Shown: positions 6,131-33,826 of the stretch, piece by piece
How positions within the stretch are numbered: the stretch's first letter is position 1
Layout: every line of letters begins with the position of its first letter
IMG/VR virus record: IMGVR_UViG_3300035520_000906
DNA from: an uncultured virus (IMG/VR IMGVR_UViG_3300035520_000906)
Lineage: Duplodnaviria > Heunggongvirae > Uroviricota > Caudoviricetes
Strand: one strand, 5' to 3'
Length of the DNA: 64,000 nucleotides
Position numbers and translations under genes: made by a program
The notes under the pieces: generated by a model
Databases searched by the model: none
Seen by the model: the letters and a program-made list of their open reading frames with translations, nothing else
What the model was told of the DNA's origin: nothing

Positions 6131-7126
6131 CTAATAACCTATTGCATTTTCATTTATTGATAAGATTTTGTTTCTTGTTTCATCTGATAAACTATTAATT
6201 CCAAAGGCATTGTCTGCTATAATAGTATTGTCTGATATATTTATATCCTCTAAATCTATACATAAATCAAATGCACTTGTTCCTATACTTATTGATTCAT
6301 TCTCTAAATTTACTTTTCTTAAATAAGTACATGCGAAGAAAGCTTGTGTACTTATGCTCTTTACACTTTCTGGTATTGTTATTTCCTCTATTGATGTACA
6401 AGAAAATGTTGATGGATTTATATTTGTTAAAGATGTTGATAATTGAACTTTCTCTAAACTATTACAATTTAGAAATGCACTATGTCCTAACTTTGTTACG
6501 TTATTTGGAATTACTATTTCTGTTAAATTATAACAATTGCTAAAAGCATATTTTCCTATGTATTCTAAGCTATCTGACAATGTAACATTCTCTAAATGTG
6601 TTAAGTTTATAAATGCATTATCACATGAAATAGATGTTATTCCATCCTCAATTATTATTGTTTTTATCTCAAATCCGTCTGCTTCTGTATAAACCTCTGA
6701 TAAGTCATAACTACTGTTATTATTGTCATTAGAATTAACTGTCTCTGAGGTTGCTTCAATCCATGGGTTTTCTGTTATCTCTCCTGTACCTGTTATTACT
6801 AATGTGTTATCTTTGTAATAATACTCTGCATTTTCTCCACATGAACCGCTGAGTTCTGATTTATCTGTGTTAAAGATTGATGTGATAGTGTCTACAACTG
6901 TTTTACTACCTTTCTCTGTGCTTGTATCTGTATTTTCATTATTGTTAGCAGCAGTTTCTACTTCTTCATTTGTAGCATCTGATATACTATTGCTACTCTC
7001 AATTTCATCTGTGCCTACATTCTCACTTTGTACTGTTTTATTTTCTGTATCTGTTGCTCCACAACCTATTAAAGTTATGCTGAGTGTTAAAATTAGAATT
7101 GTTGTTGCTAAAGTTTTGAGCTTCAT
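6131..7126 (-). CDS. BspA-type leucine-rich-repeat (LRR_5) lipoprotein
   Basis: Lipobox LIGC; repeats such as LEYIGKYAFSNCYNLTEIVIPNNVTKLGHSAFLNCNSLEKV. Confidence 0.9.
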   Translation of the reverse strand: MKLKTLATTILILTLSITLIGCGATDTENKTVQSENVGTDEIESSNSISDATNEEVETAANNNENTDTSTEKGSKTVVDTITSIFNTDKSELSGSCGENAEYYYKDNTLVITGTGEITENPWIEATSETVNSNDNNNSSYDLSEVYTEADGFEIKTIIIEDGITSISCDNAFINLTHLENVTLSDSLEYIGKYAFSNCYNLTEIVIPNNVTKLGHSAFLNCNSLEKVQLSTSLTNINPSTFSCTSIEEITIPESVKSISTQAFFACTYLRKVNLENESISIGTSAFDLCIDLEDINISDNTIIADNAFGINSLSDETRNKILSINENAIGY

Positions 7127-9580: not shown

Positions 9581-10091
9581 TGATGCTGTTCTTGCAATAA
9601 TATACAGTACTTATTCCATTACCACGATCGTTCTCAATCTCTTTTATCAGTTTAAAGTTTAATGTTTCCAAAAGATGTATATGTGTATAATTTGTTGACC
9701 ATGTTCTTGTAATTATATTCTTGTTATATGATATTTCAAAGAGTTTGCTGTACATTTTTCTAGTGATTCCATGATTTCTAAAATCACTATCCACTATTAT
9801 TGTAGTTATGTAGTTTCCTTTTAAATCTTGTTCAATTTGTTTATCTGATATGAATGATATAAAACCAACTGCTCTATTATTTTCTATTGCAAGTATAAAA
9901 CTCTGACTTTTTAACATATCAAAATATAGCAGAGGTTCGTCTGCTTTTGACTGGTCAGTTTTCATATCTTTTTGACATGTACTATTCCTTGCTGAAAGAG
10001 GAGGTACAAAATCATTGTTTGCACTTTTCAATAGTTCCCAAATATCAGTGCTGTATTTTTCATCGAATTGTTCAAGAAATATAATATTCAT
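9567..10091 (-). CDS. GNAT family N-acetyltransferase
   Basis: YITTIIVDSDFRNHGITRKMY is motif A (R-x-x-G); TWSTN..HIHLLETLNF is motif B. Confidence 0.85.
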   Translation of the reverse strand: MNIIFLEQFDEKYSTDIWELLKSANNDFVPPLSARNSTCQKDMKTDQSKADEPLLYFDMLKSQSFILAIENNRAVGFISFISDKQIEQDLKGNYITTIIVDSDFRNHGITRKMYSKLFEISYNKNIITRTWSTNYTHIHLLETLNFKLIKEIENDRGNGISTVYYCKNSINDLA

Positions 10092-10433
10092 GTTTGTACT
10101 ATTTATTACTGTTTATACCTTTCTTAATTTATGTCTAACAAATTTTATGCTATAACAGTTTTAACAACTAGTTCAATAAAAATTTCATACTGTTTATCAT
10201 TATTTTCATTATTGCCCGATTTTTACAAATTTCTTTGTCCGCCACAATTCTTACTAGTTAGAATGTTTTACTAACTTTTTATTGCTCTGTCCAATAATGA
10301 TTATTTACTTACAATTGTTAAAACATTTTTGACATTCTAAAAATCAAAAGTCAAGCATTTTGATGTTTTAAATCACTTATTCTTATCTTTAAAGCTTAAA
10401 GAATGGTATAAACCTACACCAGTGATAGGTGTA

Positions 10434-11572: not shown

Positions 11573-11965
11573 CTATTCATACATTGCTCTGACTACATTA
11601 TCCAACTTCATTCTGTATTTCCATGCAGTTGAAACTGAACAATGTGCTTCTCTTGAAATGTGTGGTAAAGAATAAGCATTTACATAGCCTTTTAATACTT
11701 CTTCCATTCTATTATCCGATAGATGACTATATCTTAAAAAGCTATCTTGATTTTCTGAAAAGGTTTTACCACACTTCTTACAGATGTATCTTTGTAAACC
11801 TATTTTCGTTTTACCATGCTTTTTGTATTTTACTGAGTTACATAGCGGACAACTAAGCTCAACTTTAGTATGAATTTTCTTATTTAGCCTTACCAACAGT
11901 TGTTCTTTTTCTTCTGAAGTTAAATTACTTATTAAAGATAGTAATTCTTCATTAGTTAATGCCAT
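11573..11965 (-). mobile_element. IS1595/IS1-like transposase N-terminal remnant (Zn ribbon + HTH, no DDE domain)
   Basis: CPLC...KHGK...QRYICKKCGKTF followed by an HTH-like SLPHISREAHCSVSTAWKYRMKL; stops before any catalytic domain. Confidence 0.7.
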
Positions 11966-11985
11966 TATTAAACCTCCCTTAACTT

Positions 11986-12735
11986 TTACATATATTTAAC
12001 TGTGTTATCATTCAATAGGTAATCTATTCCATCCCTATAAGCATATAACAACTCATTTCCCCAGATGGTTGTATATAAACCTATTGATGTAAAGTTATGA
12101 ATCTCAATGATTGCAGTTCCTTCTTTTCCGACCATTATATCTAATGAATATGACTTTAACCATTTCTCATGAAATGAAATTAAGTTTACTGCCTTCTGTA
12201 TCAACTTTATGTCTGGAAGTAATAATGGGTCTCCATTATATAATGTTATGTTTATAATTTCATTGTTTATCACATAAACTCTGTATTCTGCTTGAATAGC
12301 AAATGGAGAACTCACTTGATAATATCTGTCTTTTGCTAATCCATTCACAATATCATAAAAGCCAAACCATGCTAACTGAGAATAACTCTTAAGTTCACTT
12401 ACATCTTTTATAAACCATTGCCCAGTTTTAGGTAAGTCTTCCCATTTTACTATATTGTAATCTCTCTTAAGAAACTCGTCTGTCTGTAAATACTTTGGAA
12501 TCTCAACAGGAACTTCATGGTCGAAGTTATATAACTTCTGAAGCGTTTTTGTTACAAACTCTATTGTTCCAATAGGTATAACACCTTTCTCTATGTCTGT
12601 TTTATCAATTTCACTCAATGACAATGTTTTATAATCAAATGTATACTTATTTCTTCTAAGTATCTGCTCTGTTATAAGCTTCTCTTCTTCAAGAGTATGT
12701 GAATCTAACATTTCTGATTGTAGTAATACATTCAT
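11986..12735 (-). CDS. ATP-grasp protein (R2K clade / DUF4343-like)
   Basis: IPIGTIEFV, WFIKD, AEYRVYV, YSLDIMV..GTAIIEIHNFTSIGLY pattern. Confidence 0.75.
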   Translation of the reverse strand: MNVLLQSEMLDSHTLEEEKLITEQILRRNKYTFDYKTLSLSEIDKTDIEKGVIPIGTIEFVTKTLQKLYNFDHEVPVEIPKYLQTDEFLKRDYNIVKWEDLPKTGQWFIKDVSELKSYSQLAWFGFYDIVNGLAKDRYYQVSSPFAIQAEYRVYVINNEIINITLYNGDPLLLPDIKLIQKAVNLISFHEKWLKSYSLDIMVGKEGTAIIEIHNFTSIGLYTTIWGNELLYAYRDGIDYLLNDNTVKYM

Positions 12736-14917: not shown

Positions 14918-16312
14918 TTACATATTGCTACTATAATCCATGTCTATACCGCATAAACCTTGACTATTGAAGTCTAACTCCAATGATGAATATGTATTGT
15001 CTCCATATTCATACCAGCGATATTCTGTAAATCCCTCAGATCCATCTTCTGGTTCATAAGTGTATTCATAATCAGGTTCACCTATTACATCAATTGCATC
15101 TTCAAGTGTAAGGTTCTGTGTTAAATTACTACCAATATCAAATGTAATTACACCATCCTGACCTATTGTTCCACCAACTTCTGAGTTGTATTTATGTATT
15201 GCATCATATGATACATTTAATAATACACAATCTGTAAATGCTTTTGTTTCATCTGTATTATTAGTAAACTGTAATGTTAATGTACCATAATTAGTAGGAT
15301 AGTCTCCTAAACGAAGAAACGTAAAACTGTAATAATCTGGTTCAATCTCAGTATTTTCGTATTCTTCATAATTACCTGTACTAATATATTGCTTAATGTC
15401 TGATAATTTTGTTTCCCCAAATGTCCATTCTTCACCATTAACTACAATATGTATTCCATCATAATTATTAAGGTTAACTGATTCTTTTGCTTCAAAGTTA
15501 CTTCCATTTATTATGTAACTATAATCATTAGTGCTTTCATAATCCTGTGATTCAGATGATACTACAAAATCATCATCTGAGTTATCAGCATCTGCATCAT
15601 ACTCATACTCGTAAAAGCTTGAATCATAATCATTGTTAGATTCAATATCATAAATTCCTGTACCGTTTTCTCCACTGTCTATCTCAACATTTTCATCTTC
15701 TATCAAATTACTAAGAGTTCCCAGTGAAACTATTCCTGTAAACAGTAAAATTATCCACAGTGCTAAACTTATAATACTTATTATAATACCAGCTGTTGCT
15801 TTTCCATTTGATCTGCATTTTGCTTTACCTATAATACTGCAAATTAAAGCAGGGATACCAAGAATAGGCCCACAGCATATAATTGATAAAATTGAAAATA
15901 TTAAACCAACTAATGAAATGGTTGCACCAGGCTGTTTCTGTGGATACATCTGTTGATTCAATGAATACTGATTATATTGGGGTTGCTGCTGTCCATGCAT
16001 TCCATAATTATCTTGGTATCCATTTTGCTGGTATCCATTTTGATACTGTTGCTGTCCATAGTTTTGCTGTTGACCATACTGTGGTTGCTGTATATATCCG
16101 TTATTATACTGCTGATTGTAATTCTGCTGAGTCTGTTGGTTATAAACTCCTTGCTGAGTTTGTTGTCCATATTGCTGTTGCTGAGGTTGCTTGCTCAAGT
16201 TCATTGTTTGATCTTGATTCTGTGTTGGTCTCTGAATCTGCCCTTGTGGTTGACCATACCCCTGTGGATTGGTATTCATACCATTTCCATTTGTACCGTT
16301 ACTGACTTCCAT
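14918..16312 (-). CDS. Membrane protein: Q/N/Y-rich N-terminus, DUF4190-like TM pair, acidic extracellular domain
   Basis: ATISLVGLIFSILSIICCGPILGIPALICSIIG...GKATAGIIISII; GGAGG RBS. Confidence 0.8.
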   Translation of the reverse strand: MEVSNGTNGNGMNTNPQGYGQPQGQIQRPTQNQDQTMNLSKQPQQQQYGQQTQQGVYNQQTQQNYNQQYNNGYIQQPQYGQQQNYGQQQYQNGYQQNGYQDNYGMHGQQQPQYNQYSLNQQMYPQKQPGATISLVGLIFSILSIICCGPILGIPALICSIIGKAKCRSNGKATAGIIISIISLALWIILLFTGIVSLGTLSNLIEDENVEIDSGENGTGIYDIESNNDYDSSFYEYEYDADADNSDDDFVVSSESQDYESTNDYSYIINGSNFEAKESVNLNNYDGIHIVVNGEEWTFGETKLSDIKQYISTGNYEEYENTEIEPDYYSFTFLRLGDYPTNYGTLTLQFTNNTDETKAFTDCVLLNVSYDAIHKYNSEVGGTIGQDGVITFDIGSNLTQNLTLEDAIDVIGEPDYEYTYEPEDGSEGFTEYRWYEYGDNTYSSLELDFNSQGLCGIDMDYSSNM

Positions 16313-16820: not shown

Positions 16821-17420
16821 CTACTGTTTAATACTTTTTACACCAATGCTCATATACTTCATAGATTCCTTTTTAACCTCATCGGACACACCAATATATC
16901 TTAATGTTACATCTTCTGATGAATGATTAAATATATCCATTAGTAATCTTATATCATGATTGTAATAGTAGTGCCAATAACCAAATGTTTTTCTCATACT
17001 ATGACAACCGATATTATCTGTAATTCCTACTGCTCTAGCTGCTTCATTAAGGTCTAAATATATCTGGTATCTCGACAAAGGTAAAGGTTTACCATCTTTA
17101 TCCTTGTTTCTACTTTCAAACATCCAGGCTGAATCATCTCTATCTTTAATGTATTCAGTAATTAAACCGTTAAGCTCATCTGAAATTGGCACACGTACTT
17201 TCTTTCCATACTTCTGTGTTTTCTCTGGTGTCAACTCTACAAACCCTTGCTCACATGACTTTCTGTAAAAGCCAACTTTCTGATGTGTAAAGTCAGTTAC
17301 ACGAATACCTAAATTTATTCCAATCTCAAACATAACATAGTCACGTATATTCTTATTATATAGGTATTCAATCATTTCGTTTAATTTCTTTTTATCCATT
17401 ATAGGTTCTACTCTACTCAT
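16821..17420 (-). CDS. Short tyrosine recombinase/integrase
   Basis: Catalytic residues LGIRVTD (R), EKTQK (K), HSMRKTF (HxxR), FNHSSEDVTLRYIG (H, Y); AGGAGG RBS. Confidence 0.93.
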   Translation of the reverse strand: MSRVEPIMDKKKLNEMIEYLYNKNIRDYVMFEIGINLGIRVTDFTHQKVGFYRKSCEQGFVELTPEKTQKYGKKVRVPISDELNGLITEYIKDRDDSAWMFESRNKDKDGKPLPLSRYQIYLDLNEAARAVGITDNIGCHSMRKTFGYWHYYYNHDIRLLMDIFNHSSEDVTLRYIGVSDEVKKESMKYMSIGVKSIKQ

Positions 17421-17792: not shown

Positions 17793-18107
17793 TTATTCCT
17801 CAACTACATAGACCAACTGTGCTGCTGAGTAGTTAACACTCCAAGTCACAACCTTAGGCTGATCCTCTTTAGAGATGAGTTCGTTAACAATGTCATCCTG
17901 AGCTTTCTGAAAAGCCTGCTGTGCATCTGCAATCTGTTTCTGACAAGCTGCTACCATTGGACTGCTGATGAACTTGGTATTGTTGTCCATTGCATGCATG
18001 TCCATGAGAGTAGCAAGTACTTCTTTCTTTGAACGAAGGTCACAATCAAGTGCCTGAAGATTACTAGCCTGTTCCTTACTGATTTCCAGTGTGATTTCTT
18101 TGTTCAT
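17793..18107 (-). CDS. Protein resembling the CXXX-repeat peptide modification system accessory protein
   Basis: ~100 aa, helical hairpin then W-S-V-N-Y...L-V-Y C-terminus, adjacent to a CxxxC-repeat gene; resemblance recalled, not searched. Confidence 0.5.
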   Translation of the reverse strand: MNKEITLEISKEQASNLQALDCDLRSKKEVLATLMDMHAMDNNTKFISSPMVAACQKQIADAQQAFQKAQDDIVNELISKEDQPKVVTWSVNYSAAQLVYVVEE

Positions 18108-18182
18108 GTTTTAAATCTCCTTTAAATAAAAATTACTCTAATTATATCTAAATGCATATATTATGGCACTTAAATCAAAATT

Positions 18183-18223
18183 AATTCTAGCACTTATGTA
18201 TTCACTGCACAAGTGCTAGAATT
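18183..18223 (-). terminator. Terminator hairpin
   Basis: 13-bp stem AATTCTAGCACTT/AAGTGCTAGAATT. Confidence 0.65.
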
Positions 18224-18241
18224 TTAAGCTATAACTGATTA

Positions 18242-18278
18242 TTACTCTGTTACTTTACTCTGTTACTTTACTCTGTTA
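18242..18278. repeat. 13-bp tandem repeat x~2.8 spanning a stop codon
   Basis: TTACTCTGTTACT at 18242, 18255 and partial at 18268. Confidence 0.85.
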
Positions 18279-18727
18279 ATTGTACCAGATGTTTTACTTA
18301 CACCGTGTCCGTATATTTTTGCACCACTTGAACCAGTACAACCAGTACAACCATTACAAGTATTTATGCAACTTCCTACACATAATCCAGTACATAAACC
18401 ATTACAAGATGATACCTCTGTTGAATCCCCTGTAATTTGTTCTTTAGACAATTTATCTACCAAATCTAATAGTTCAGCATCAAATGCCTCTGGAAGTGTG
18501 TCTCCCTTGACTACATATCTTAAATCCTTGTAGTCACAAATCTGTAAAAGTAAATCTATTATTTTCTTACCTTGGTCAGCTGTTATTGCACGTCCAGCTT
18601 GTGGAACTTCAGTGAAGTCATATTCATCACTTGCAAACTCTGCTACTGAACCTAAGCCACTTCTTCGAGCTAGTTCAGCTTTTAACTTGGCTTTAAGTTC
18701 AATTACCTGTTCAGCTGTCATTGCCAT
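18263..18727 (-). CDS. Cys-rich CxxxC-repeat protein (putative modification target)
   Basis: C-terminal CNGLCTGLCVGSCINTCNGCTGC (7 Cys, spacing 4,4,4,4,3,3); GGAGG RBS. Confidence 0.75.
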   Translation of the reverse strand: MAMTAEQVIELKAKLKAELARRSGLGSVAEFASDEYDFTEVPQAGRAITADQGKKIIDLLLQICDYKDLRYVVKGDTLPEAFDAELLDLVDKLSKEQITGDSTEVSSCNGLCTGLCVGSCINTCNGCTGCTGSSGAKIYGHGVSKTSGTINRVK

Positions 18728-18748
18728 GATGTTTCACCTCCAGTTTTA

Positions 18749-19030
18749 TTAGCCCCATGTTGCTTTAACTGGAGTCCATTCATTTCCGTTCCAGTATTTC
18801 TGTACACCACCAACTGATGTATCTATCCATGTTTTACTTGTGTCACTAGGTGCCACAGGTCCAACTTCCTGTCCACTCTCAATTTTTGTTTCTTGAATTG
18901 GTGATGCTATTGCATCTACATTACCTAACTTTGCTGCAACAGCTAATCCAGCTGCTATAAATCCAGCCCTCTTAAGAAACTCCAATCTAGTTATATCATT
19001 TTCTTTAATGTTGTCATTACTTACTGCCAT
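18749..19030 (-). CDS. Small protein with Tat-like signal peptide and phage-fibre-like Trp motif
   Basis: AAGGAGG RBS before ATG 19030; ITRLEFLKRAGFIAAGLAVAA...AIA; C-terminal GPVAPSDTSKTWIDTS...KYWNGNEW. Confidence 0.7.
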   Translation of the reverse strand: MAVSNDNIKENDITRLEFLKRAGFIAAGLAVAAKLGNVDAIASPIQETKIESGQEVGPVAPSDTSKTWIDTSVGGVQKYWNGNEWTPVKATWG

Positions 19031-19763
19031 GTCTCTTATCCTCCTTGACAAATTTGCATATAAATATGCTAATCTGATATAATGCTATCATAGGAAGTGC
19101 CACCATTACTTGTGAAACTATATCAGGAGGAGTTATTATTGCTGATGTTATAAATATTAAAACAATTATGTAGTTTCTAATTGCTTTCATTCTATCAGGT
19201 GTTAATATACCTACCTTTGTAAATCCCACACATATCAATGGCATTTCTGCTACAATGCCTATACAGATTTCTAATGTTAAGAATAATGTTATATATTCTT
19301 TGATAGAGACCTGTGCGGTTATGTTGTTTGTTTCCCCTATATCATATAAGAACTTGTAAATAAATGGTAATAATATCTTATATGCAAATAGTGCTCCAAC
19401 TACAAATAATATAAGTGTTACAATTCCATATAAAAACAACCTCATGATTGACTTTTTACTGCTAAATACTGGACAAATAAATGCTGCTATTTCATAAACT
19501 ATAAAAGGTAAACTTACTATAAAAGCAGCTACACCAGATATTCTAACTTGCTGTATCATCACTTCTTGAGGTTGTATATACACAAATTCATATCCTATTG
19601 ACTTACCTAACTCTGTTATTACTTCTAATATCCTAGTACAATTTATATATGCGATTATGAATACTACTATAAAAACGATTAAGACTGTTCTAATTCTATG
19701 TTTTAACTCACTTATATGACCGCTCAGACTCATTTGATTAGGATTCTTATTATTCCTTTTCAT
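19017..19763 (-). CDS. tatC: Twin-arginine translocase subunit TatC
   Basis: MSLSGHISELKHRI, PFIVYEIAAFICP, GIVAEMP, SAIITPPDIVSQVMVALPMIALYQISI; six TM segments. Confidence 0.95.
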   Translation of the reverse strand: MKRNNKNPNQMSLSGHISELKHRIRTVLIVFIVVFIIAYINCTRILEVITELGKSIGYEFVYIQPQEVMIQQVRISGVAAFIVSLPFIVYEIAAFICPVFSSKKSIMRLFLYGIVTLILFVVGALFAYKILLPFIYKFLYDIGETNNITAQVSIKEYITLFLTLEICIGIVAEMPLICVGFTKVGILTPDRMKAIRNYIIVLIFITSAIITPPDIVSQVMVALPMIALYQISIFICKFVKEDKRHGSK

Positions 19764-19803
19764 GATTTAGCTGTCTTTCCTTTAGCTTATTTAGTTTTTA
19801 TAG

Positions 19804-19980
19804 TTAGTTGATTTCTTTGCTAAACTCGTCTGCCATTTCCTCTTTAGCCTGTTCAAATTCCTTCTTTGCTACCCTTATAGAATCCTTACCAGACTTAAAA
19901 AGTTTAGGAATAAGAGTTGAACCGAATAATAAGAGTACAACGACAACTATTATAGCTATCTCTAAAAATCCTATTCTCAT
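19804..19980 (-). CDS. tatA: Twin-arginine translocase TatA/TatE family subunit (58 aa, not in ORF track)
   Basis: Read by hand: MRIGFLEIAIIVVVVLLLFGSTLIPKLFKSGKDSIRVAKKEFEQAKEEM...; LLFG hinge plus amphipathic helix. Confidence 0.85.
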   Translation of the reverse strand: MRIGFLEIAIIVVVVLLLFGSTLIPKLFKSGKDSIRVAKKEFEQAKEEMADEFSKEIN

Positions 19981-20111
19981 AATAATGCCTCACTTTCTTT
20001 GTTACTGTCTAACAATAAGATTTTATTTAGTTGTTGTAAATTTCCGCCCAAATTATTACAATTTTCATTGTTATCCCCCAAATTATTTAATGTTACTTCT
20101 ACCTCTCTTTC

Positions 20112-20405
20112 TTACTTTTCCAAGTTAATTTTAGGTGAAACTTCTTTCTTTATATCTGTTACTGTATCAATGACTTCGTTTTGTAGGTCTTGTACAGGTT
20201 GAACAGCTTCTTTAACTGGTTCAGTTATTGGAGCTACTGCATCCTTAACTGGTTCTACGACTTCTTTCCTTATTTTCTCATTTTCTTCCTTAATAATTAA
20301 AAGAGCTTTACTAATTGTTTTTGCTAAATCTTTTAATTTATCAGGTTTTATGAGAGCTACTGCTACGATTACTATAACAAGTAACTCTGCTAGTCCAATT
20401 CTCAT
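20112..20405 (-). CDS. tatB: Twin-arginine translocase TatB/TatA family subunit
   Basis: MRIGLAELLVIVIVAVALIKPDKLKDLAKTISKAL matches the TatB-type ELL...PxKL pattern; upstream of tatA and tatC. Confidence 0.75.
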   Translation of the reverse strand: MRIGLAELLVIVIVAVALIKPDKLKDLAKTISKALLIIKEENEKIRKEVVEPVKDAVAPITEPVKEAVQPVQDLQNEVIDTVTDIKKEVSPKINLEK

Positions 20406-20472: not shown

Positions 20473-20994
20473 TTATTTACTCTGTAGTCTATAATATATT
20501 TTCTTATTGTACTGAAACTTTCTATATAGTAGTGTAAATATCATTACATATATTAAAGGCTCTATTATACTTGCTAAAAATATTATTGCTATGCTTGTAT
20601 CTGTATAAATGGTTGCTACTAGCATTAATGACAATAGACTTGTTAAACTTACTGCTATCATTTCAACTGTGTCTAGTTCCCACCATAGCACCAAGTCCAA
20701 CAAGTCTATTACTAACGTTATACCTAACATACCTAATATTAAAATTATCAGAAACAATGCTCCACGTACACTATTATAATTGCTTTCACTCATTATTAGT
20801 GGTGCACTATTATCATTCATTATATCGTTATAATACCAGTTTTCTGTGTAACTTGCAAGTTTAAAACAACCTGCTAATTCAATGATAAGCTTAATTAAAA
20901 TTGATATAATGTGTGAAATCTTTAACAGTTGTTTCGTTAATTTATTATCTAATTTATATTTTTTACAATAATGTCTGATAATATTTTCAATCAT
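20473..20994 (-). CDS. Multi-TM membrane protein
   Basis: About four hydrophobic segments. Confidence 0.65.
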   Translation of the reverse strand: MIENIIRHYCKKYKLDNKLTKQLLKISHIISILIKLIIELAGCFKLASYTENWYYNDIMNDNSAPLIMSESNYNSVRGALFLIILILGMLGITLVIDLLDLVLWWELDTVEMIAVSLTSLLSLMLVATIYTDTSIAIIFLASIIEPLIYVMIFTLLYRKFQYNKKIYYRLQSK

Positions 20995-21011: not shown

Positions 21012-21734
21012 TTAAGCTTCCTCTATAATTTGCATTTCAACTTTTACTGGCATATCAATTGTTTGTTTAGGTCTATACACATTATAATTTCTGCCATCCA
21101 CCCTTATAAAACAACCGCTGTTACTTTGTCTTTCGTTGTTACTATTCTCAATATCCTTGATTGTCATATCTGAGTTAATGTCTGATAATATATCTTTTAT
21201 AAGACCTTTATCATCAGTTGATGTATACACCTTATATAATACAGATGCTACCTCTTTATTTAGCATTTGTTTAGTAGCTTCTATCATAAGGTTCCTAAAC
21301 TTACTATCTGTGATTGTTACACCATTATGTGATAGTGTCTGCTTTATCTCTGCTGCTTCACTACCTTTTGTTATACTCTTGATAATTTTGCTAACTAGTT
21401 CACTATCCATTTTCTCTATGTATTGTTTATTTATCTCAAGTATATACTCAATATCTGACATTGATAAACTGTAACCAGCATTTGTCATTATTGATTTTAT
21501 TTGTTTACTTGACAAACCTAAGCTTGCATACTTACATATATCACATGCTGTCAATATAATGTCAGTATTCTTCTTAATTGCCTCGTCTGATGTGGCTCTC
21601 TGGTACATACCACATACTGCTTGTCTACTCATCTGTATATTATAATCTCTTGCAAGTATATCACTTATAGTTTGGAATGAGCAGTTTCTTTCTTTTAAGT
21701 CCACTATTATTGCCTTAAGCTCTCTCTTATCCAT
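21012..21734 (-). CDS. Putative HTH-containing DNA-binding protein
   Basis: N-terminal CSFQTISDILARDYNIQMSRQAVCGMY is HTH-like; two further similar segments (GLSSKQIKSIM..., GSEAAEIKQTL...). Confidence 0.5.
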   Translation of the reverse strand: MDKRELKAIIVDLKERNCSFQTISDILARDYNIQMSRQAVCGMYQRATSDEAIKKNTDIILTACDICKYASLGLSSKQIKSIMTNAGYSLSMSDIEYILEINKQYIEKMDSELVSKIIKSITKGSEAAEIKQTLSHNGVTITDSKFRNLMIEATKQMLNKEVASVLYKVYTSTDDKGLIKDILSDINSDMTIKDIENSNNERQSNSGCFIRVDGRNYNVYRPKQTIDMPVKVEMQIIEEA

Positions 21735-26582: not shown

Positions 26583-27011
26583 TTATTTATCGCTGTTTTT
26601 ATCTTTCTTGAATATGATTAGTTTACTAGCTACATAGTTTAAAATAATTACAATTATGTTAGACATTAATTTCCAAATCATTTCGTTCCAATGATTTAGG
26701 TCAACTGCTATATACATAATTACTAAATCTATCAAACCAGTTGTTATTCTGCAAGTAAAAAATGTAACTAATTCATATAATACTTTCTTTACTTCCATTG
26801 ACTTACTGTCAAATACAAATAATTTATTCGTAATAAATGCAAATATTACTGATATAAACCATGCTAGTGCTGTACTTATTACATTTGCTATATGTATTTT
26901 GTCATATAATACATAGTATGTTACTAAGTTTATAATTGTTGTCAGTACTCCAAATATTGCATACATTATAAATGACTTATATTTTAGCAACAGTTCCTTA
27001 ATTTTAATCAT
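26583..27011 (-). CDS. gtrA: GtrA/GtcA family membrane protein (putative lipid-linked sugar flippase)
   Basis: YAIFGVLTTIINL...AWFISVIFAFITNKLFVF...KLMSNIIVIILNYVASKLIIFKK; four TM. Confidence 0.9.
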   Translation of the reverse strand: MIKIKELLLKYKSFIMYAIFGVLTTIINLVTYYVLYDKIHIANVISTALAWFISVIFAFITNKLFVFDSKSMEVKKVLYELVTFFTCRITTGLIDLVIMYIAVDLNHWNEMIWKLMSNIIVIILNYVASKLIIFKKDKNSDK

Positions 27012-27396
27012 ATTCTTCTATCCCCTCTTTATCCCCAAGAATATAGACTGTCCTATGTACGTTCCAATTTTTCTTTTCACAGTATTCATCCATTATCTTT
27101 ATTGACTTATCAAATATGTCTGTTTTATTTACTATTTCTTTTATGATTTCCTCCTTGGAGTAAACCATAGTTTCAATGCTAGGTATTTCATAAATATGGT
27201 TACTGCTAAAACAAAAAGTTGTTTTTTTATAATTAACTGATGTTCTGCAACTATAACTATATTCAACTCTATCGTCAAAAAAATAGAAATGCATGTAAAA
27301 TGTTAGTACTCTATGTGAAGGAACTTCATATCCTTGTGTTACTAACATATATGAATTATTTTTTCCTTTTGATATATTGCTGACCACTATTTCCAT
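27004..27396 (-). CDS. YSKEE-motif array protein (single unit)
   Basis: EIPSIETMVYSKEEIIKEIV. Confidence 0.8.
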   Translation of the reverse strand: MEIVVSNISKGKNNSYMLVTQGYEVPSHRVLTFYMHFYFFDDRVEYSYSCRTSVNYKKTTFCFSSNHIYEIPSIETMVYSKEEIIKEIVNKTDIFDKSIKIMDEYCEKKNWNVHRTVYILGDKEGIEEYD

Positions 27397-27477
27397 ATTG
27401 CATACCTACTTAGTTCAATTAAAATAAAATATTTATTTATCATTATTTTAATGCAATATGAAATAAAAGCACCTTTA

Positions 27478-27813
27478 TTATTTCATGTATTCTTCTATTT
27501 TAGACTTGATTTCATCTAATATATTATCATTTTTCAAAATGTGTCTTATGTATTCTTCTTTACTATACAATGCTAGTTCAACTATATTTATGTCTAATAT
27601 TGAATTTACTGTTATACTTCTATCTAATGGTAATAATCTTGAATTGAATTGCCACAGTGGTTCATAATATATTGAGTAAACTAAACGATTTATGTTATTT
27701 CCCAGAGAAAACAAAAATTTGATTTCGAGTGATGTGTCTTCGCCTTTAACTTTTGTTCTTACAATAACTCTGTATTTGTCAATATCTGTATTTTCAAAGC
27801 TACTTATTATCAC
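27478..27813 (-). CDS. YSKEE-motif array protein (single unit)
   Basis: DINIVELALYSKEEYIRHIL. Confidence 0.8.
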   Translation of the reverse strand: MIISSFENTDIDKYRVIVRTKVKGEDTSLEIKFLFSLGNNINRLVYSIYYEPLWQFNSRLLPLDRSITVNSILDINIVELALYSKEEYIRHILKNDNILDEIKSKIEEYMK

Positions 27814-28545
27814 TCAATGAACCTCCACTTTACTACTTAACAAATCAATATCATTTTCAATCTGCTGTGTAGCATCCTCAAATATGTTATTTTTACTAAG
27901 ATAGTCTAGTATCAATTCTGCATAGTCAACAAACTCTTCATGACCTTTTATATCTCTTTCCTTGATTGTACGTTTTAAGTTAATGTACATATATTTTGTT
28001 TTCACATAACCATTATATATAATAGCATATCCATTACTATTACAAAATGGCATGTAGAATGTAAGTACTGCTGTTAATATATTTCCCTTATAGTCACCCT
28101 CAGCATATAGTCTGTATGTCTTATCTTTTGCAAAGTTATATAGTGCTCCTTTAGCAGGCATTATACTTGTCACATCAAACTCTGTATTTGATGCTTTGAA
28201 CTTTTTAAGATTGTTTAACTTAATTGTAGCTTTGTTAATTGCTTCTATTACTATGCTATCATTATCAAGTAGAATTTTTTCTAACAATTCTTTCTTTGAA
28301 TACATCATTAACTCAATGTTTGATATATTAAACTCTGGATATTTGTCTATACTTACCAATACAAAACCAATGGTACTTGCTATTTGTATATATTTACACT
28401 TAATACTATTATTGTCCTCAAAATCAAACTTTAATATAGCTGTACTGTCTCCTACTACATCATCATGTGATAGATGAATTTTAGTTAATGTTTCATTTGA
28501 GTTAAGTTGTATTATATCCAATATATTGAGTTTATCTATTTCCAT
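27814..28545 (-). CDS. YSKEE-motif array protein (double unit)
   Basis: NISNIELMMYSKKELLEKIL. Confidence 0.8.
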   Translation of the reverse strand: MEIDKLNILDIIQLNSNETLTKIHLSHDDVVGDSTAILKFDFEDNNSIKCKYIQIASTIGFVLVSIDKYPEFNISNIELMMYSKKELLEKILLDNDSIVIEAINKATIKLNNLKKFKASNTEFDVTSIMPAKGALYNFAKDKTYRLYAEGDYKGNILTAVLTFYMPFCNSNGYAIIYNGYVKTKYMYINLKRTIKERDIKGHEEFVDYAELILDYLSKNNIFEDATQQIENDIDLLSSKVEVH

Positions 28546-28551
28546 TCTGTT

Positions 28552-29307
28552 TTATTCCTTTGCTCTTATGTCATTTCTAAATTGATGCATTCTTCTTAGT
28601 AAATATTTACTAACCTTTCCATAAATTATGAATGAGTTTATTAGCTCTTCATCAGTGTCTATATTGTGTTCCTCTATAAAATCTTTGTTAATTTGACATG
28701 TTTGCTCATTTATTTGTACTGATTTTAAGTCTGTGTATAGTGCTTCGATTAAACTTGTATGTGATACTTGTATAACTTCATCTTGATTTGTTCTTGACAG
28801 TAGCATGTTGATTGTTACTTTTATATAGTTGCTTGTTATAGTTACTTTGTATACTCCTTCTTTAGTTACTGCTCTTTCTATATTTACCATTGCCGTATCT
28901 ACATCGTTTATAACAACCATGAAATTTGTTATTGTTTTCTCATAAATTCTCATTAGTTCATCATCTAATATTCTATCTTCTAGTATCAATTTTCTTATGT
29001 ATTCTTCTCTGGAGTACATAAGCATTGCTACTATATTTGCTGTTATTTTGTTCTCTTTTAAATCATAACTTTGATGATATCCACCTAATGTAATATCAGA
29101 TGGGTCATTATGCAGTGAACCATAATTATATTTAGTTACTACTCCACCATATGTAATCTCTATATTATTGTCTGTTGTCTCAAACTTTACTTCCATTATA
29201 ATATTTAATGCTGAACTTTTAATATCTGTACTTAACATTACTGTGTACTCATTTTCTGTACACAGTAGTATTCTTTCAATATGGATAATTGGTTTGATTT
29301 TTTCCAT
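28552..29307 (-). CDS. YSKEE-motif array protein (double unit)
   Basis: TANIVAMLMYSREEYIRKLI. Confidence 0.8.
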   Translation of the reverse strand: MEKIKPIIHIERILLCTENEYTVMLSTDIKSSALNIIMEVKFETTDNNIEITYGGVVTKYNYGSLHNDPSDITLGGYHQSYDLKENKITANIVAMLMYSREEYIRKLILEDRILDDELMRIYEKTITNFMVVINDVDTAMVNIERAVTKEGVYKVTITSNYIKVTINMLLSRTNQDEVIQVSHTSLIEALYTDLKSVQINEQTCQINKDFIEEHNIDTDEELINSFIIYGKVSKYLLRRMHQFRNDIRAKE

Positions 29308-30179
29308 GTTTCCTCCAATAAGTCTTGCTCTTTCTGTATTTTAATTTTCAGGTCATCACTTATTTCTGATGGTCTATTATGTTTTCCCAGATATTTTGTG
29401 AATATTTCCTCATGAGCATCTATTACTTTTTCTGCTTGTTCAATAACATTTTTAAAAAGATATCCTTGTTTAATTAATTGCTCTATTACATAAATTCTTT
29501 TATCGCGTGGATTATTCACTGTTATTTCATCTGGAATTGTCACGTATTCTGTACATTGATCCCAGTAATCTTTTTTACTTGCTATGCTATAACCAACTCT
29601 TCCTAGAGTAAAATCATCAAAAGGTGCACAAATGTTTTGTCTTACCCATGCTCCCTCTCTATAATTTACAACTTTACCACGCTTTCCTATAAGTCTTATA
29701 TCATTATATAACTCTCTTATTATTGCTCCTTTATAACTTCCCTGTATGCTTACACCAAATTCTGTATAGTCTTTATTTTTTATGTATATGTAGTCTATAT
29801 ACACACTTGTTTTACTTATCTTAAACATCTTTCTGTAAAGTTGTTTTCTTACATGTCTCTCAGCTTTTCTTAAGTATACACTATTTAGTAGCTTGTTTTG
29901 TATTATTTCTTCTTTGCTATAAACAAGTAAATCCATATCAGTTATATCTTCTATACAAGGTGTAATTGAAATCTTAGATGCTTGATCTCTAGACTTTCCA
30001 GCTAAGAATGTTTTATATGTATACAATAGTCTATTGTTTGTTACATCAAGTTTCACTTTTATTTTACTATGTATATTTATATTTTTAACTGCTGCATTAT
30101 TATATATTGTACTATACATGTAAACTGTGTATTCATTTCCATTATCATTTGATATTCTTATTTTTCTTTCCAGTGACAT
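29238..30179 (-). CDS. YSKEE-motif array protein (double unit)
   Basis: DITDMDLLVYSKEEIIQNKL. Confidence 0.8.
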   Translation of the reverse strand: MSLERKIRISNDNGNEYTVYMYSTIYNNAAVKNINIHSKIKVKLDVTNNRLLYTYKTFLAGKSRDQASKISITPCIEDITDMDLLVYSKEEIIQNKLLNSVYLRKAERHVRKQLYRKMFKISKTSVYIDYIYIKNKDYTEFGVSIQGSYKGAIIRELYNDIRLIGKRGKVVNYREGAWVRQNICAPFDDFTLGRVGYSIASKKDYWDQCTEYVTIPDEITVNNPRDKRIYVIEQLIKQGYLFKNVIEQAEKVIDAHEEIFTKYLGKHNRPSEISDDLKIKIQKEQDLLEETWKKSNQLSILKEYYCVQKMSTQ

Positions 30180-30936
30180 TGTGTCTCCTTAGTTTATCTG
30201 GCCAGTTATCTACTGCTTTCTCCATTTCAATTACTGACTCATTATATAAATATCCTCGTTTTAATAACTTTTCTATTGTCAATGACATTTTATGTAACTT
30301 GTCTCTTTCAATGAGTTCATCAGGTACTTCCACTTCTGTAAGTGTGCACCCATCACCGAAATCAGTATATTTACCTTGTTTGTCAAGCACTGTCACTTCA
30401 TTTAGGTATTTTAATTTTCTGAATTTATTATCTGTGAATATTATTGGAACTATCTTACTTTGAATTGCGTATCCCTTGTATAAACCTATGAGGTATGCCA
30501 TGTATTGCTTTGCTGGTTTATTCTTATAAATTCTGAACTCTTTTATGTTTGCTATAAAGAATGTTGTGTTATGTATCTTGAAACTTCTATTTTGTTTGTA
30601 TCTTTTATATACCTTTCTTACATTTTTAGATATTGTTTTATCATTAAGTAATATGTGCTCAATTATTTCTTGCTTTGTGTACATTAACAATTCTAAATTG
30701 TTAACTTTAACTTCTCTAGGTTGTTCCAAAATAAATGACTTTTCCCATACTGTTCCCATATGTGTTTTAGACTTATATACTAATGATGTATCTCCATTTT
30801 TATCAGTAACAAATTTTACTCTTGATATTGTTACCACTTGTCCCTTGTAGTTGTTAGAAACTAGCATGTCTATTATCTTTGCTATGTAAAATTCATCATG
30901 ACAATATATGTCTATTGTTCTTCTATAATCTTCCAA
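30145..30936 (-). CDS. YSKEE-motif array protein (double unit)
   Basis: KVNNLELLMYTKQEIIEHILLND. Confidence 0.8.
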   Translation of the reverse strand: MEDYRRTIDIYCHDEFYIAKIIDMLVSNNYKGQVVTISRVKFVTDKNGDTSLVYKSKTHMGTVWEKSFILEQPREVKVNNLELLMYTKQEIIEHILLNDKTISKNVRKVYKRYKQNRSFKIHNTTFFIANIKEFRIYKNKPAKQYMAYLIGLYKGYAIQSKIVPIIFTDNKFRKLKYLNEVTVLDKQGKYTDFGDGCTLTEVEVPDELIERDKLHKMSLTIEKLLKRGYLYNESVIEMEKAVDNWPDKLRRHNVTGKKNKNIK

Positions 30937-30938
30937 CT

Positions 30939-31694
30939 TTATGTCCTCTTAATGTTTTCTGATGTTTTCCACTCTTCAGCTTTCTTGTCCATCTCTGCTT
31001 CCATCTGTGTTATAGCTTCTTTAAAAAGTAATTGCTGTTTTAATGCCTGTTCAACTACCTTATATCTGTTTTTCTCTTTTGGGTCTATCTTGACTTTTAC
31101 TGTTTTGTACTTACCATCTCCAAACTCATAGAAGCCTCCTTTTCTACCTACTACTATCACACCATCTATATATGTTATGCTAGCTAAACCATTGGAAAAC
31201 CTTATTCTTGTATGAGTGTTTTGAACTGTATTTCCTCTGTATTTACCAATTATATACACTGCTGTTACTGTTCCATTATAATCATTATTCATATAATCTT
31301 TAAATATATTATCAATCCAGAAGGTTGTATTACTTATTTTGAAACTATGTGTCTTTTTATATTTAATGTATACTTTGTAAATATCAGCTGTTATATCTTC
31401 ATCGTTTAACAGTATATCTGTTATTATTTCGTCTTTTGTATACATTAAAAGTGATAAATCATTTATAGGTACTGTTTTATATCTACTTGCTACATATACT
31501 GGTTTCCATTTTACTGCTGACCTTACTTTATATTTATAAACTAATGTTGTTTTATTGTTATCATCTATGTTAAAATGTAAATGTACAAATGTTGATACCG
31601 CTATATTATGCCCAACATGATCCCACATATCAGCTTCATAATAATTTTCTTTTTTAGCCCTTTGAATGTTAATGCTACGCTTACTATTTACCAT
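30939..31694 (-). CDS. YSKEE-motif array protein (double unit)
   Basis: PINDLSLLMYTKDEIITDILLND. Confidence 0.8.
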   Translation of the reverse strand: MVNSKRSINIQRAKKENYYEADMWDHVGHNIAVSTFVHLHFNIDDNNKTTLVYKYKVRSAVKWKPVYVASRYKTVPINDLSLLMYTKDEIITDILLNDEDITADIYKVYIKYKKTHSFKISNTTFWIDNIFKDYMNNDYNGTVTAVYIIGKYRGNTVQNTHTRIRFSNGLASITYIDGVIVVGRKGGFYEFGDGKYKTVKVKIDPKEKNRYKVVEQALKQQLLFKEAITQMEAEMDKKAEEWKTSENIKRT

Positions 31695-31720
31695 AGTTTA
31701 TCTCCCACCAAATACTATCT

Positions 31721-32467
31721 TTAATTATTATCTATCATGTTTTCTAATTCCAGCATATCTGAATCATTCACTATATACCCTTGTCTAACTAATTTCTCCA
31801 TTGCGTCCATTAGTTCTTTTGGCAAAGACTTTGCATTAACTCTTATACTACTTGGAAGTGCTATTATCTTTTTACGAGCATATCCTTTTATACAACCATT
31901 GTAGCTTCTAAATTTCGTATTGCAATCCACTAATCTTACTATTTGTATTTCGTCATCAAGTAAATATATTGTGCTTTCTATGGAAATATCATCGCTTTTG
32001 TATCTTCCCATTATTCGTGCATATACTGTTGTATCTGCTACTCTTCCCATACTAGCTGTTGTTGCTACTCTAACAGTTGACTTACTTATCTGAAATTCAT
32101 TTGTTTCTATAAACTCTTTATATGCATTTGATATTTCTCTCTGTATTTCCTTATTGGAATTAACTGCCTTTTTTATAATATCCTCTCGTGTATATAATAT
32201 AGATTCAATGTTATCTGCATAAATATATCTGTAATTTGTATCTACCTTATGTATAGGCTTAGTTGCACCATCTATATCTATTCGTAGCGTATACTTAATC
32301 ACAATGTTATCTTCATTAACTAAGTAATTTGTTATGAGTGTAGTAGTTACTATATCAGGATGTAATCTTTCACTATAATATTCGTCTTCTATGGTTACTA
32401 CATAAGTATCATCATTATTATCTTTCATAGGTGAAATGCATATTTCCCTATTATACTCTGTTTCCAT
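31721..32467 (-). CDS. YSKEE-motif array protein (double unit)
   Basis: YADNIESILYTREDIIKKAV. Confidence 0.8.
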   Translation of the reverse strand: METEYNREICISPMKDNNDDTYVVTIEDEYYSERLHPDIVTTTLITNYLVNEDNIVIKYTLRIDIDGATKPIHKVDTNYRYIYADNIESILYTREDIIKKAVNSNKEIQREISNAYKEFIETNEFQISKSTVRVATTASMGRVADTTVYARIMGRYKSDDISIESTIYLLDDEIQIVRLVDCNTKFRSYNGCIKGYARKKIIALPSSIRVNAKSLPKELMDAMEKLVRQGYIVNDSDMLELENMIDNN

Positions 32468-32470
32468 CCT

Positions 32471-33328: not shown

Positions 33329-33728
33329 GATATACTTTCAGCACCATTTTATCCATGTGCTTTACCATTTTAGGATGATAAATTGCTCTTTCAATTAGTT
33401 CCGTTTTATTATAAAGCATTATTTCTGTATCTGACAAAGTTATTGTATATCTATGTAATAAATTTGTAAATGAGATTAATTCTTTAATAGTAAGTGTTTC
33501 ATGATAATGACTCCCCAGAACATTAAATATGAACCCTACTGGCTTACATGTTACTTTGTTTCTTTTACCAAGCTTTAAATTTACTGAAAAATGAATCATT
33601 GATGACGAATCTTTATATTCTGCATCAACTGCTATGATTATGTTCTCATTTTTTGTGTTTCCCATACTCATTAAGTCCATTATTGTATAATCTATGTTAT
33701 TTGATGAAATAAAATGCTTGTAATCCAT
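33300..33728 (-). CDS. YSKEE-motif array protein (single unit)
   Basis: TLSDTEIMLYNKTELIERAI. Confidence 0.8.
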   Translation of the reverse strand: MDYKHFISSNNIDYTIMDLMSMGNTKNENIIIAVDAEYKDSSSMIHFSVNLKLGKRNKVTCKPVGFIFNVLGSHYHETLTIKELISFTNLLHRYTITLSDTEIMLYNKTELIERAIYHPKMVKHMDKMVLKVYHDYESTQNR

Positions 33729-33789
33729 GATTTACCTCAATTCTACTCTTTTCCTACCAATTATATATTTTTGTCTATTTTATAGAACA

Positions 33790-33826
33790 AAACAGTAGAT
33801 ATGCTGTTTAATCATATCTACTGTTT
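33790..33826 (-). terminator. Intrinsic terminator inside the array
   Basis: 14-bp stem AAACAGTAGATATG/CATATCTACTGTTT. Confidence 0.7.

Follow-up and report, generated by a model that had tools for sequence, protein, structure and literature searches.

The DNA analysed here, which we call the window, is a stretch of 64,000 nucleotides of the IMG/VR record IMGVR_UViG_3300035520_000906, filed as an uncultured virus of the Caudoviricetes. From position 17793 to position 20405 it carries six co-oriented genes on the minus strand: a tatB-like gene, tatA and tatC, which together would form a twin-arginine translocation (Tat) system; a gene for a protein of 93 amino acids (aa) with a Tat-like export signal, which we call the carrier; a gene for a 154-aa protein that ends in a run of cysteines, the Cys-repeat protein; and a gene for a 104-aa accessory protein. 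A preliminary description, made from the sequence alone, had proposed these six genes, and all are found where it had placed them. We give an even chance to the reading that the locus is a CXXX-repeat modification cassette that has acquired its own, non-canonical Tat translocase. The parts are of known kinds. What is new, to judge from the sequences, is the way in which they are split and changed: the signal is borne by a protein of its own, 93 aa long, the mature part of which corresponds to the C-terminal tip of a phage tail fibre, and the loss of the second arginine from this signal goes together with the loss of the glutamate E103 from the linked TatC.

The signal and its receptor

The tatC gene (19017..19763, minus strand) encodes 248 aa that match the Pfam TatC family with an E-value of 1.3e-49 (169.2 bits, for a cut-off of 25.1) and the model TIGR00945 with 163 bits (cut-off 132.7); residues 11-244 align with the solved Aquifex TatC, 4b4a (E = 2.1e-34). 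The 58-aa product of tatA (19804..19980, minus strand) matches PF02416 (E = 5.4e-7, 29.2 bits, cut-off 21) and stays under all NCBIfam equivalog cut-offs. The tatB-like gene (20112..20405, minus strand) encodes 97 aa with an N-terminal transmembrane helix, a proline hinge (LIKPDKL) and a long amphipathic tail; its match to PF02416 is under the cut-off of 21 (E = 0.0028, 17.3 bits), and its top NCBIfam row is tatB, TIGR01410, also under its cut-off (E = 2.6e-6, 27.9 bits against 56.5). Firmicute Tat systems usually consist of TatA and TatC only.

The carrier gene (18749..19030, minus strand) starts with an ATG at position 19030, 9 nucleotides past an AAGGAGG, within the 3' end of tatC, with an overlap of 14 nucleotides. 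Since both the start and the Shine-Dalgarno sequence lie inside tatC, the 93-aa reading is right, and tatC and the carrier are translationally coupled. The signal reads TRLEFLKR, with one arginine, and is followed by a Gly/Ala-rich hydrophobic core, a lysine in the c-region and an A-I-A cleavage motif, as read from the sequence. The preliminary description had announced a Tat-signal-like gene overlapping tatC: the overlap, the start and the Tat-like character of the signal stand, and the signal is not a twin-arginine one, because the second arginine is missing, with the remaining motif, the core and the AxA site in place. The mature part, 51 aa long, aligns with the C-terminal tip of phage tail fibres (WIDT..GG..KYWNG..W..K..WG). 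No other Tat-like signal, with two arginines (RR) or a single one, was found among the open reading frames (ORFs) of the window. One candidate for a second cargo, tatA itself, whose N-terminus MRIGFLE fits the single-arginine pattern, was rejected: this stretch is the start of its transmembrane segment.

How constant is the missing arginine? The five closest carriers read TRLEFLKR, TRLEFLKK, SRKQFLEK and, twice, SRGEFLKR: all five have the first arginine, and the residue that follows it is L, L, K, G and G. They also keep the lysine of the c-region, a feature of Sec avoidance. An exhaustive search yields 146 carrier representatives at E <= 0.001, many of them proteins of 75-104 aa with a signal. 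Our alignment of 31 carriers is made up of small proteins (75-104 aa) whose match extends from the signal on; tip-only fibre-like proteins, six longer signal-bearing ones and proteins of more than 200 aa are set apart. In this alignment, the first position is S or T in 30 carriers, Arg15 is present in all 31, the phenylalanine F18 in 30, the leucine in 28, and a Lys or Arg occupies position 20 in 27. The position after Arg15 varies: it is K in 16 carriers, A in 5, L in 4, R in 2, and S, T, M and E in one each. In the six longer signal-bearing proteins, read by eye, it is R, E, K, K, K and K.

The absence of the arginine that defines Tat signals could suggest that the 93-aa protein is exported by Sec, or anchored in the membrane, and that the TatC-like protein has another role. 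However, signals of Sec type lack the conserved block [ST]-R-x-[DE]-F-L-K, of which the phenylalanine (30/31), the leucine (28/31) and the basic residue at position 20 (27/31) are kept here, and the c-region lysine of the five closest carriers also speaks against Sec; we find this explanation scarcely credible, the least probable of all those considered.

We now turn to the receptor. Cryo-electron microscopy places the first arginine of a signal in contact, through a water molecule, with E15 of Escherichia coli TatC, stacked under F94, and makes the second arginine form a salt bridge with E103, according to the available part of PMC13323110. The window TatC keeps H16, E19 and F95, the equivalents of E. 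coli H12, E15 and F94, and so do all nine members of its clade; in 111 other TatC homologues, these equivalents are kept in 111, 111 and 108 sequences, respectively. The column of E103 behaves differently. The window has Lys104, and its clade has Lys in 8 of the 9 members and Gln in the ninth, against 106 Glu, 4 Gln and 1 His in the 111 other homologues, and Glu in 25 out of 25 TatCs found within the Bacteroidales clusters described below. The whole loop of the window TatC, PVFSSKKSIMR, has no acidic residue, and the corresponding loop of a second, very divergent TatC, that of the locus L158 introduced in the next section, is likewise devoid of acidic residues.

The window clade consists of nine clusters that share 59-82% identity and 76 invariant columns; the remaining TatC homologues listed reach at most 44% identity. 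The TatC phylogeny, a check suggested by the preliminary description, yields a 120-sequence tree in which the window clade is monophyletic, and its stem is the longest internal branch (0.61, support 0.994). In these comparisons, the window TatC has lost none of the residues that contact the first arginine and the phenylalanine of a Tat signal, and the glutamate for the second arginine has been replaced: the receptor site is altered in step with the signal, a point that the preliminary description had missed. Such a receptor should disfavour ordinary RR cargo. We also considered a charge swap, in which Lys104 of TatC would pair with the glutamate found after the arginine, and dropped it: canonical RR signals from the mostly Bacteroidales group, such as SRREFFK, have this acidic residue too, and the lysine found at the second position of many carriers weakens the idea further.

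Relatives of the locus and the CXXX-repeat module

A profile of the TatC clade finds two metagenome loci, L073 and L074. On the 245,760-bp contig of L073, the genes follow in the order 240-aa protein, membrane protein, tatB-like, tatA, tatC, carrier, Cys-repeat protein, 98-aa protein, maturase and 104-aa protein; in L074 this order is repeated, except that the tatB-like gene, tatA and codons 1-136 of tatC are missing. Both loci are collinear with the window (DNA identity about 70%), and the gene arrangement is not one due to chance. The overlap of tatC with the carrier and the gene order are kept in L073, to which the window proteins are 58% (tatB-like) and 72-76% (tatA) identical. Upstream of the six genes, the shared gene order includes a multi-pass membrane protein of 173 aa (20473..20994, minus strand), kept in L073 at 33% identity, and a conserved protein of 240 aa (21012..21734, minus strand), kept in L073 (44%) and L074 (47%); neither has a significant family match. 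In L074, at 9862-10351, a deletion fuses tatC, from codon 137 on, to the start (~19 codons) of the gene for the membrane protein; its carrier, Cys-repeat gene and 104-aa gene are intact, and its maturase frame is split at ~12717.

A third locus, L158, lies beside rnf genes in a metagenome-assembled genome (MAG) of Lachnospiraceae and looks chromosomal. It consists of tatA, a very divergent tatC, a 590-aa protein, the carrier, the Cys-repeat protein, two small genes and a maturase, and its variant TatC is the only PF00902 match of the genome. Further hints come from homologues whose longest contigs have equal sizes: 18,734 bp for TatC, carrier and Cys-repeat protein, and 40,964 and 4,641 bp for TatC and Cys-repeat protein; we infer that these are the same contigs. 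The conserved linkage on which the preliminary description had staked its proposal thus exists, in L073, in part in L074, and in L158. Scans of IMG/VR, with TatC and the Cys-repeat protein as single queries and with the TatC-clade and carrier profiles, yielded no Tat-linked relative; the TatC-clade profile has no match in GTDB genomes, and a scan with a three-sequence carrier alignment gave none either.

Compared with L073, all six genes have a lower proportion of nonsynonymous than of synonymous differences (pN < pS). The ratio of the corresponding rates, dN/dS, is 0.20 for the tatB-like gene, 0.22 for tatC, 0.29 for the carrier and 0.17 for the Cys-repeat gene, with synonymous sites near saturation; it is not computable for tatA and the 104-aa gene (pS 0.83). 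The tatB-like, tatA and tatC genes are real and under purifying selection.

The Cys-repeat protein (18263..18727, minus strand) has a conserved N-terminal domain of 105 aa, without a signal peptide, followed by the seven-cysteine core C-x3-C-x3-C-x3-C-x3-C-x2-C-x2-C. Across 22 homologues, these cysteines vary little or not at all; C108, C112, C116, C120 and C124 are invariant in the family formed by the window protein and 21 homologues. The window protein itself matches no CXXX target model of NCBIfam; its homologues P0014 and P0015 carry PF27846 (tSAM_targ_Cxxx_rpt), and a second Cys protein of locus L029 matches TIGR04114 with 32.4 bits for a cut-off of 20.

The 104-aa accessory protein (17793..18107, minus strand) has no direct NCBIfam match, and as a single sequence it aligns with TIGR04116 with an hhalign probability of 14.7%; a profile of its family compared with 45 Bacteroidales-type TIGR04116 homologues reaches a probability of 88.2% over 95 columns (E = 3e-6), which makes it a remote relative. 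Its AlphaFold2 (AF2) model, with a predicted local distance difference test (pLDDT) of 89.6, consists of a beta-strand, a helical hairpin and a beta-hairpin. Foldseek finds no match for this model in the PDB at E <= 0.001, and a PqqD-type recognition domain is absent among the matches listed, a direct comparison not having been made. Taken together, the family matches assign the Cys-repeat gene and the 104-aa gene to what would be the CXXX repeat peptide modification system curated in NCBIfam. The preliminary description knew of no described system with this arrangement; this has to be amended, since the Cys module matches that one.

What the window lacks is the enzyme. Searches by tblastn with two maturases as queries find no radical S-adenosylmethionine (SAM) maturase in its 64 kb, and no TIGR04119 gene is present. 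The collinearity with L073 and L074 breaks precisely at the 155-bp spacer 18108..18262, which contains an inverted repeat with 11-bp arms: at this site, about 2 kb are lacking, with a small gene and the maturase. The relatives have there a 98-aa gene (L073) or a 130-aa frame (L074), plus a radical SAM/SPASM maturase. The maturase of L073 matches TIGR04115, the "radical SAM peptide maturase, CXXX-repeat target family", with 433.5 bits, and those of related loci with 511.9 and 652.2 bits, for a cut-off of 350. The next-best rows of the TIGR04115 enzymes are the thioether-forming PapB, SCIFF and QhpD maturases, and HxsB (TIGR03978) is matched weakly. Because the maturase is lacking, a thioether product cannot come from the window locus alone. 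The modified Cys-rich product of the preliminary description is therefore a mixed case: the dedicated Tat route has strong support from comparison, and the thioether product is not one that can be made here alone. With the maturase deleted, the product would be unmodified, or modified in trans, or else the cassette is starting to decay.

Decay could reach further, to the Tat genes themselves: the loss of the E103 glutamate would disable signal binding, the signal would have drifted, and nothing would be exported. In E. coli, the TatC mutant E103A is inactive in transport and negative in binding, in the available part of PMC13323110, and the available part of PMC13673990 considers the haloarchaeal TatCt sites without F94 and E103 to be inactive; moreover, the maturase is gone in the window, and the tatB-like gene, tatA and half of tatC are gone in L074. 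Decaying genes, however, would hardly leave nine intact TatC clusters with 76 invariant columns, or dN/dS ratios as low as those of tatC and the carrier. Drift would not preserve the first Arg, the Phe and the Leu in 31, 30 and 28 of 31 carriers, and the second TatC lineage, in L158, has the same loss beside the same type of cargo, as the sole TatC of its genome. We consider inactive Tat genes quite unlikely.

A profile of the Cys-repeat protein retrieves 63 loci in IMG/VR and 9 in genomes; with two later loci, this makes 74. A radical SAM/SPASM maturase of TIGR04115 type lies just downstream in 72 of them, and a relative of the 104-aa protein is present in 67. Upstream of the Cys-repeat gene, the phage loci have baseplate and tail-fibre genes, with ORFs that match tail-fibre PHROG families such as phrog_7037 (1.7e-28) and phrog_26419 (1.4e-19). 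In 17 of the 74 loci, the ORF that precedes the Cys-repeat gene ends in W[GSAQ], and in 9 it has the full tip motif. The tip-bearing loci are those whose Cys-repeat N-domain is nearest to that of the window, with 42-76% identity against mostly 32-40% elsewhere. The simplest account would be a CXXX-repeat cassette with a private Tat channel, in whose Firmicute form the Cys-repeat protein kept its phage-type N-domain and has no signal, the signal being found on a separate fibre-tip protein. Tat genes are found within ~8 kb of the Cys-repeat gene in none of the 72 phage-type and genome loci, by tblastn and by profile, and a tblastn search of deposited phages with the Cys-repeat protein gave no match. 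One of the phage contigs with the fibre, CXXX and maturase module (L001) also encodes, at 11663-12715, a TubZ-like tubulin (PF00091, E = 1.5e-13; TubZ_C_3, E = 1.5e-8).

An independent parallel exists, mostly in Bacteroidales. The record MT837480.1 has a Cys-repeat protein with its own canonical signal, SRREFFK, followed by TIGR04115, TIGR04119, TIGR04116, tatA and tatC. A scan of species genomes with the maturase profile gives 80 loci; 40, with MT837480.1 counted, have a maturase at least 59% identical to that of this record. Among these 40, mostly Bacteroidales, loci, 38 have a CXXX-repeat ORF with an RR signal, and 24 have tatC downstream of the maturase, on the same strand and at 1.4-3.6 kb (of the 32 loci whose flank reaches at least 3.6 kb, 20 have it); the remaining 41 maturase loci have neither tatC nor an RR signal. 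Several of the former carry 2-5 CXXX-repeat genes with RR signals, and one of them, L093, has five. In this form, cargo with a standard signal goes with a standard TatC, and the Tat link may already be recorded in Haft and Basu 2011 or in the notes of the NCBIfam models.

The phage label of the deposited records is doubtful. A tblastn search of deposited phages with the window TatC finds 14 records, all under 35% identity, and those that could be judged were discarded: MT837203.1 is Bacteroidales chromosomal DNA, MT837480.1 matches Prevotella and Segatella loci, and two are Salmonella contigs. The first two are filed as "Bacteriophage sp." from a faecal virome, and both look like bacterial DNA; the maturase of MT837480.1 is 82-89% identical to those of Prevotella and Segatella chromosomal loci, and MT837203.1 has nrdD, nrdG, a gene like that of the CCA-adding enzyme, and a standard tatC.

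With these loci in hand, two further explanations can be weighed. In the first one, the fibre-tip protein is the sole cargo of the dedicated Tat system; the Cys-repeat protein stays in the cytoplasm or is released otherwise, and their adjacency is inherited from the fibre/CXXX pair of phages. It is the 93-aa protein alone that bears the signal, is coupled to tatC and is concerned by the altered receptor; its family is large, as the 146 representatives attest, and binding between the two proteins is conjectural. Against this, the Cys-repeat gene directly follows the carrier gene in four out of four loci with DNA, the subfamily of the N-domain varies together with the tip motif from one phage locus to another, and the mostly Bacteroidales Cys-repeat proteins with their own signal are Tat cargo, which makes the export of Cys-repeat proteins a common theme. 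Export of the tip alone is thus unlikely, without being negligible.

In the second one, the Tat genes form a general-purpose translocase that serves different cargo, from the host or from the element, and the CXXX adjacency is incidental. The in-cluster TatC is the sole PF00902 match in the Segatella copri HDE04 chromosome (L110) and in Prevotella merdae (L080), as is the variant one in L158; as the only TatC of its genome in S. copri and P. merdae, it may also serve housekeeping cargo there. Furthermore, the contig is 141,860 bp long, and the window covers no more than 64 kb of it. The ORFs of the window, however, hold no other signal of either kind, the overlap and order of tatC and the carrier are kept in L073, and the receptor change should disfavour RR cargo; a general-purpose translocase is very improbable.

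The proposed export route and its setting

Returning to the cassette with its own translocase, the following route can be proposed. The variant TatC and the one-arginine signal would form a co-evolved, largely private receptor-signal pair, so that the cargo could be exported without reliance on the host Tat. The maturase would cross-link the signal-less Cys-repeat protein in the cytoplasm, most likely by thioether links, given its kinship to the PapB, SCIFF and QhpD maturases. The Cys-repeat protein would then dock, by its N-domain, on the fibre-tip domain of the carrier and be taken out of the cell in the folded state, like a hitchhiker; if the two proteins are exported as one folded complex, this would account for the use of Tat rather than Sec. 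That the Cys-repeat protein piggy-backs on its signal-bearing partner, as the preliminary description had suggested, is plausible, since the mature part of the carrier corresponds to the fibre tip that precedes this very Cys-repeat gene in phages. We hold the hitchhiker step, with its cross-linking, docking and folded co-export, tentatively, at somewhat less than an even chance. Outside the cell, a speculative role for the complex of tip and Cys-repeat protein would be at the surface, for example occupying a phage receptor, as in superinfection exclusion, or serving as an adhesin.

Several observations weigh against this proposal. Replacement of E103 by alanine inactivates TatC in E. coli (PMC13323110, available part), and natural haloarchaeal copies without F94 and E103 are read as inactive sites (PMC13673990, available part); since the loss of E103 is inactivating elsewhere, the variant TatC could simply be defective. 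The window without its maturase, and L074 without half of its Tat genes, are what relaxed selection would produce. No simple charge-swap rule links signal and receptor, because the second position is Lys in 16 of the 31 carriers and the TatC of the window clade also has Lys, and the acidic residue after the second position is found in canonical Bacteroidales RR signals as well. That the carrier binds the Cys-repeat protein is a conjecture, and AF2 models the latter poorly (pLDDT 50). The absence of nearby Tat genes in all 72 phage-type and genome loci implies that export is not needed for the usual role of the module. Finally, the carrier and TatC are found together as DNA in four loci only (the window, L073, L074 and L158), one of which has a truncated tatC.

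One may nevertheless push the proposal to its boldest form: a natural single-arginine Tat pathway, in which TatCs without E103 co-evolved with signals without the second arginine, as an orthogonal channel brought by mobile or island cassettes, and which would export a cross-linked complex of fibre tip and CXXX protein as a domesticated receptor-binding tip, either to block the receptor against related phages or as an adhesin. Taken as a whole, this conjecture is rather doubtful. Its interest lies in the possible orthogonal export channel for folded proteins.

What is the element that carries the locus? The 64 kb, a mobile-looking stretch that appears to come from a gut Firmicute and is read entirely from one strand, have a G+C content of 26-35%, and contain a tyrosine recombinase and a transposase-like ORF. 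No phage structural PHROG family was found among the 78 window proteins scanned, no tRNA is present in the window, and its DNA matches phage and plasmid records in no more than ~100-bp stretches, within the integrase or tatC. The tyrosine recombinase (16821..17420, minus strand, 199 aa; PF00589, E = 3.4e-19; integrase phrog_216, E = 1e-49) is a neighbour of the module; L074 has an orthologue, 69% identical, at the corresponding position, and L073 has none. A protein of 1342 aa at 59924-63952 (minus strand) matches no family above threshold; by Atlas features it is nearest to clusters of HerA/FtsK/VirB4/TraG-type ATPases (0.93), and its Pfam match to FtsK_SpoIIIE has an E-value of 0.072. This weak resemblance is a lead to a conjugative rather than a viral element. 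The preliminary description called the system element-borne, with phages and plasmids in view: given the 78 proteins without a structural PHROG, the lack of any Tat-linked relative in the IMG/VR scans and the position of L158 beside rnf genes, carriage by either is conjectural, and the chances of a genomic island or a conjugative element are no smaller.

Among the other genes around the module, a 464-aa protein at 14918-16312 (minus strand), whose N-terminal region is rich in Gln and Asn and which also has a membrane segment of DUF4190 type and an acidic domain at the C-terminus, is kept downstream in L073 and L074 at 32-34% identity. Those two loci also have an HExxH protein: 295 aa at 14097-14984 of L073, directly downstream of the module (Pfam ATLF, E = 3.9e-10), and 269 aa at 15463-16269 of L074, recognised by eye. 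Further along the minus strand of the window, positions 27004-46646 hold three arrays of paralogous genes, with 9, 6 and 4 members that are 20-70% identical, over ~20 kb and with no Pfam or PHROG match. The interval 49262-54860 (minus strand) encodes in a row an FtsH-like AAA protease of 608 aa, a protein of 984 aa that includes a thermolysin M4 domain, and one with a DnaJ domain; the protease matches phrog_30773 (E = 7e-94), so that it has phage relatives. Two SUKH/SMI1-KNR4 proteins, which we take to belong to an immunity-type family, lie at 1106-1531 and 2128-2556 (minus strand), near a BspA-type leucine-rich repeat protein (6131-7126), a GNAT protein, an R2K ATP-grasp protein and an InsA-like zinc-ribbon ORF.

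Comparison with known systems

No experimental work on the CXXX-repeat/TIGR04115 system was found in full-text searches, and Haft and Basu 2011 may describe the system. Nothing relevant came from pairing radical SAM with tail fibre or twin-arginine in such searches, and a paper on the mining of ribosomally synthesized and post-translationally modified peptides in Bacteroidales contains none of the words TatC, twin-arginine, CXXX, Cys-rich or cysteine-rich. In the available part of a 2026 review of Tat, the mentions of phage, plasmid, viral or virus include no phage- or plasmid-borne Tat system.

In the HXS antiphage system, HxsA, a protein with HxS repeats matured by radical SAM enzymes, is exported to the periplasm and blocks the entry of phage DNA, as the available part of PMC13128918 has it. 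The likeness is that of a repeat protein matured by cytoplasmic radical SAM/SPASM enzymes and then exported; the differences, within the same part of the source, are that the repeat is Cys-based here and His-x-Ser there, that HxsA carries its own signal peptide, and that no Tat genes are mentioned for HXS. HXS is thus a useful analogy for a function outside the cell, and not evidence for one. The haloarchaeal TatCt, made of two fused TatC units, is also a natural TatC without the E103 glutamate (PMC13673990, available part). However, as far as that part goes, TatCt loses both F94 and E103 and is partnered by an intact second TatC, whereas the window clade keeps F94 and has the matching cargo next to it, and the L158 genome has no other TatC.

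The CXXX system of NCBIfam comprises the targets TIGR04114 and TIGR04117, the maturase TIGR04115, the small protein TIGR04116 and a second maturase, TIGR04119. The window resembles it by its target with a run of Cys-x-x-x and its small partner remotely related to TIGR04116, L073, L074 and L158 have TIGR04115, and the Bacteroidales form of the system is itself tied to Tat. Unlike this system, the window has neither maturase nor TIGR04119, and its target bears an N-domain of phage type, 105 aa long, and no signal, which belongs instead to another protein. The locus ties a widespread radical SAM system, found in gut phages beside tail fibres and on Bacteroidales chromosomes, to an export route, and an export route for CXXX-repeat products implies that these products act outside the cytoplasm. 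Conversely, part of the purpose of Tat in gut anaerobes such as Segatella copri, Prevotella merdae and one Lachnospiraceae MAG may be the CXXX-repeat system.

Phages of T4 type have a tail fibre and a downstream adhesin or assembly protein, the pair gp37/gp38. The Cys-repeat gene likewise comes directly after a fibre gene with a conserved tip in 17 of the 74 loci; the likeness rests on gene order, and a signal peptide stands in the place of the fibre body in the case of the window. Co-export by Tat of a signal-less subunit carried by a signal-bearing partner was reportedly described by Rodrigue et al. in 1999. As in such hitchhikers, a small signal-bearing protein is encoded here beside a signal-less protein that needs maturation in the cytoplasm; unlike them, the carrier is a 51-aa tip of a phage fibre rather than an enzyme subunit, and the pairing is deduced from the genes.

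The closest comparison remains that with the canonical TatABC and TatAC systems. The locus shares with them a full-length TatC that retains the counterparts of H12, E15 and F94, a single TatA beside a single TatB-like protein, and a cargo signal built on the frame S/T-R-x-x-F-L-K, with a core of mild hydrophobicity and a cleavage site of AxA type. It differs from them on both sides of a single contact: the glutamate that binds the second arginine is Lys or Gln in TatC, and the cargo has no second arginine. Since the twin arginines and E103 are treated as the defining handshake of Tat, a lineage that drops both, with the cargo encoded beside its receptor, is a natural test of specificity.

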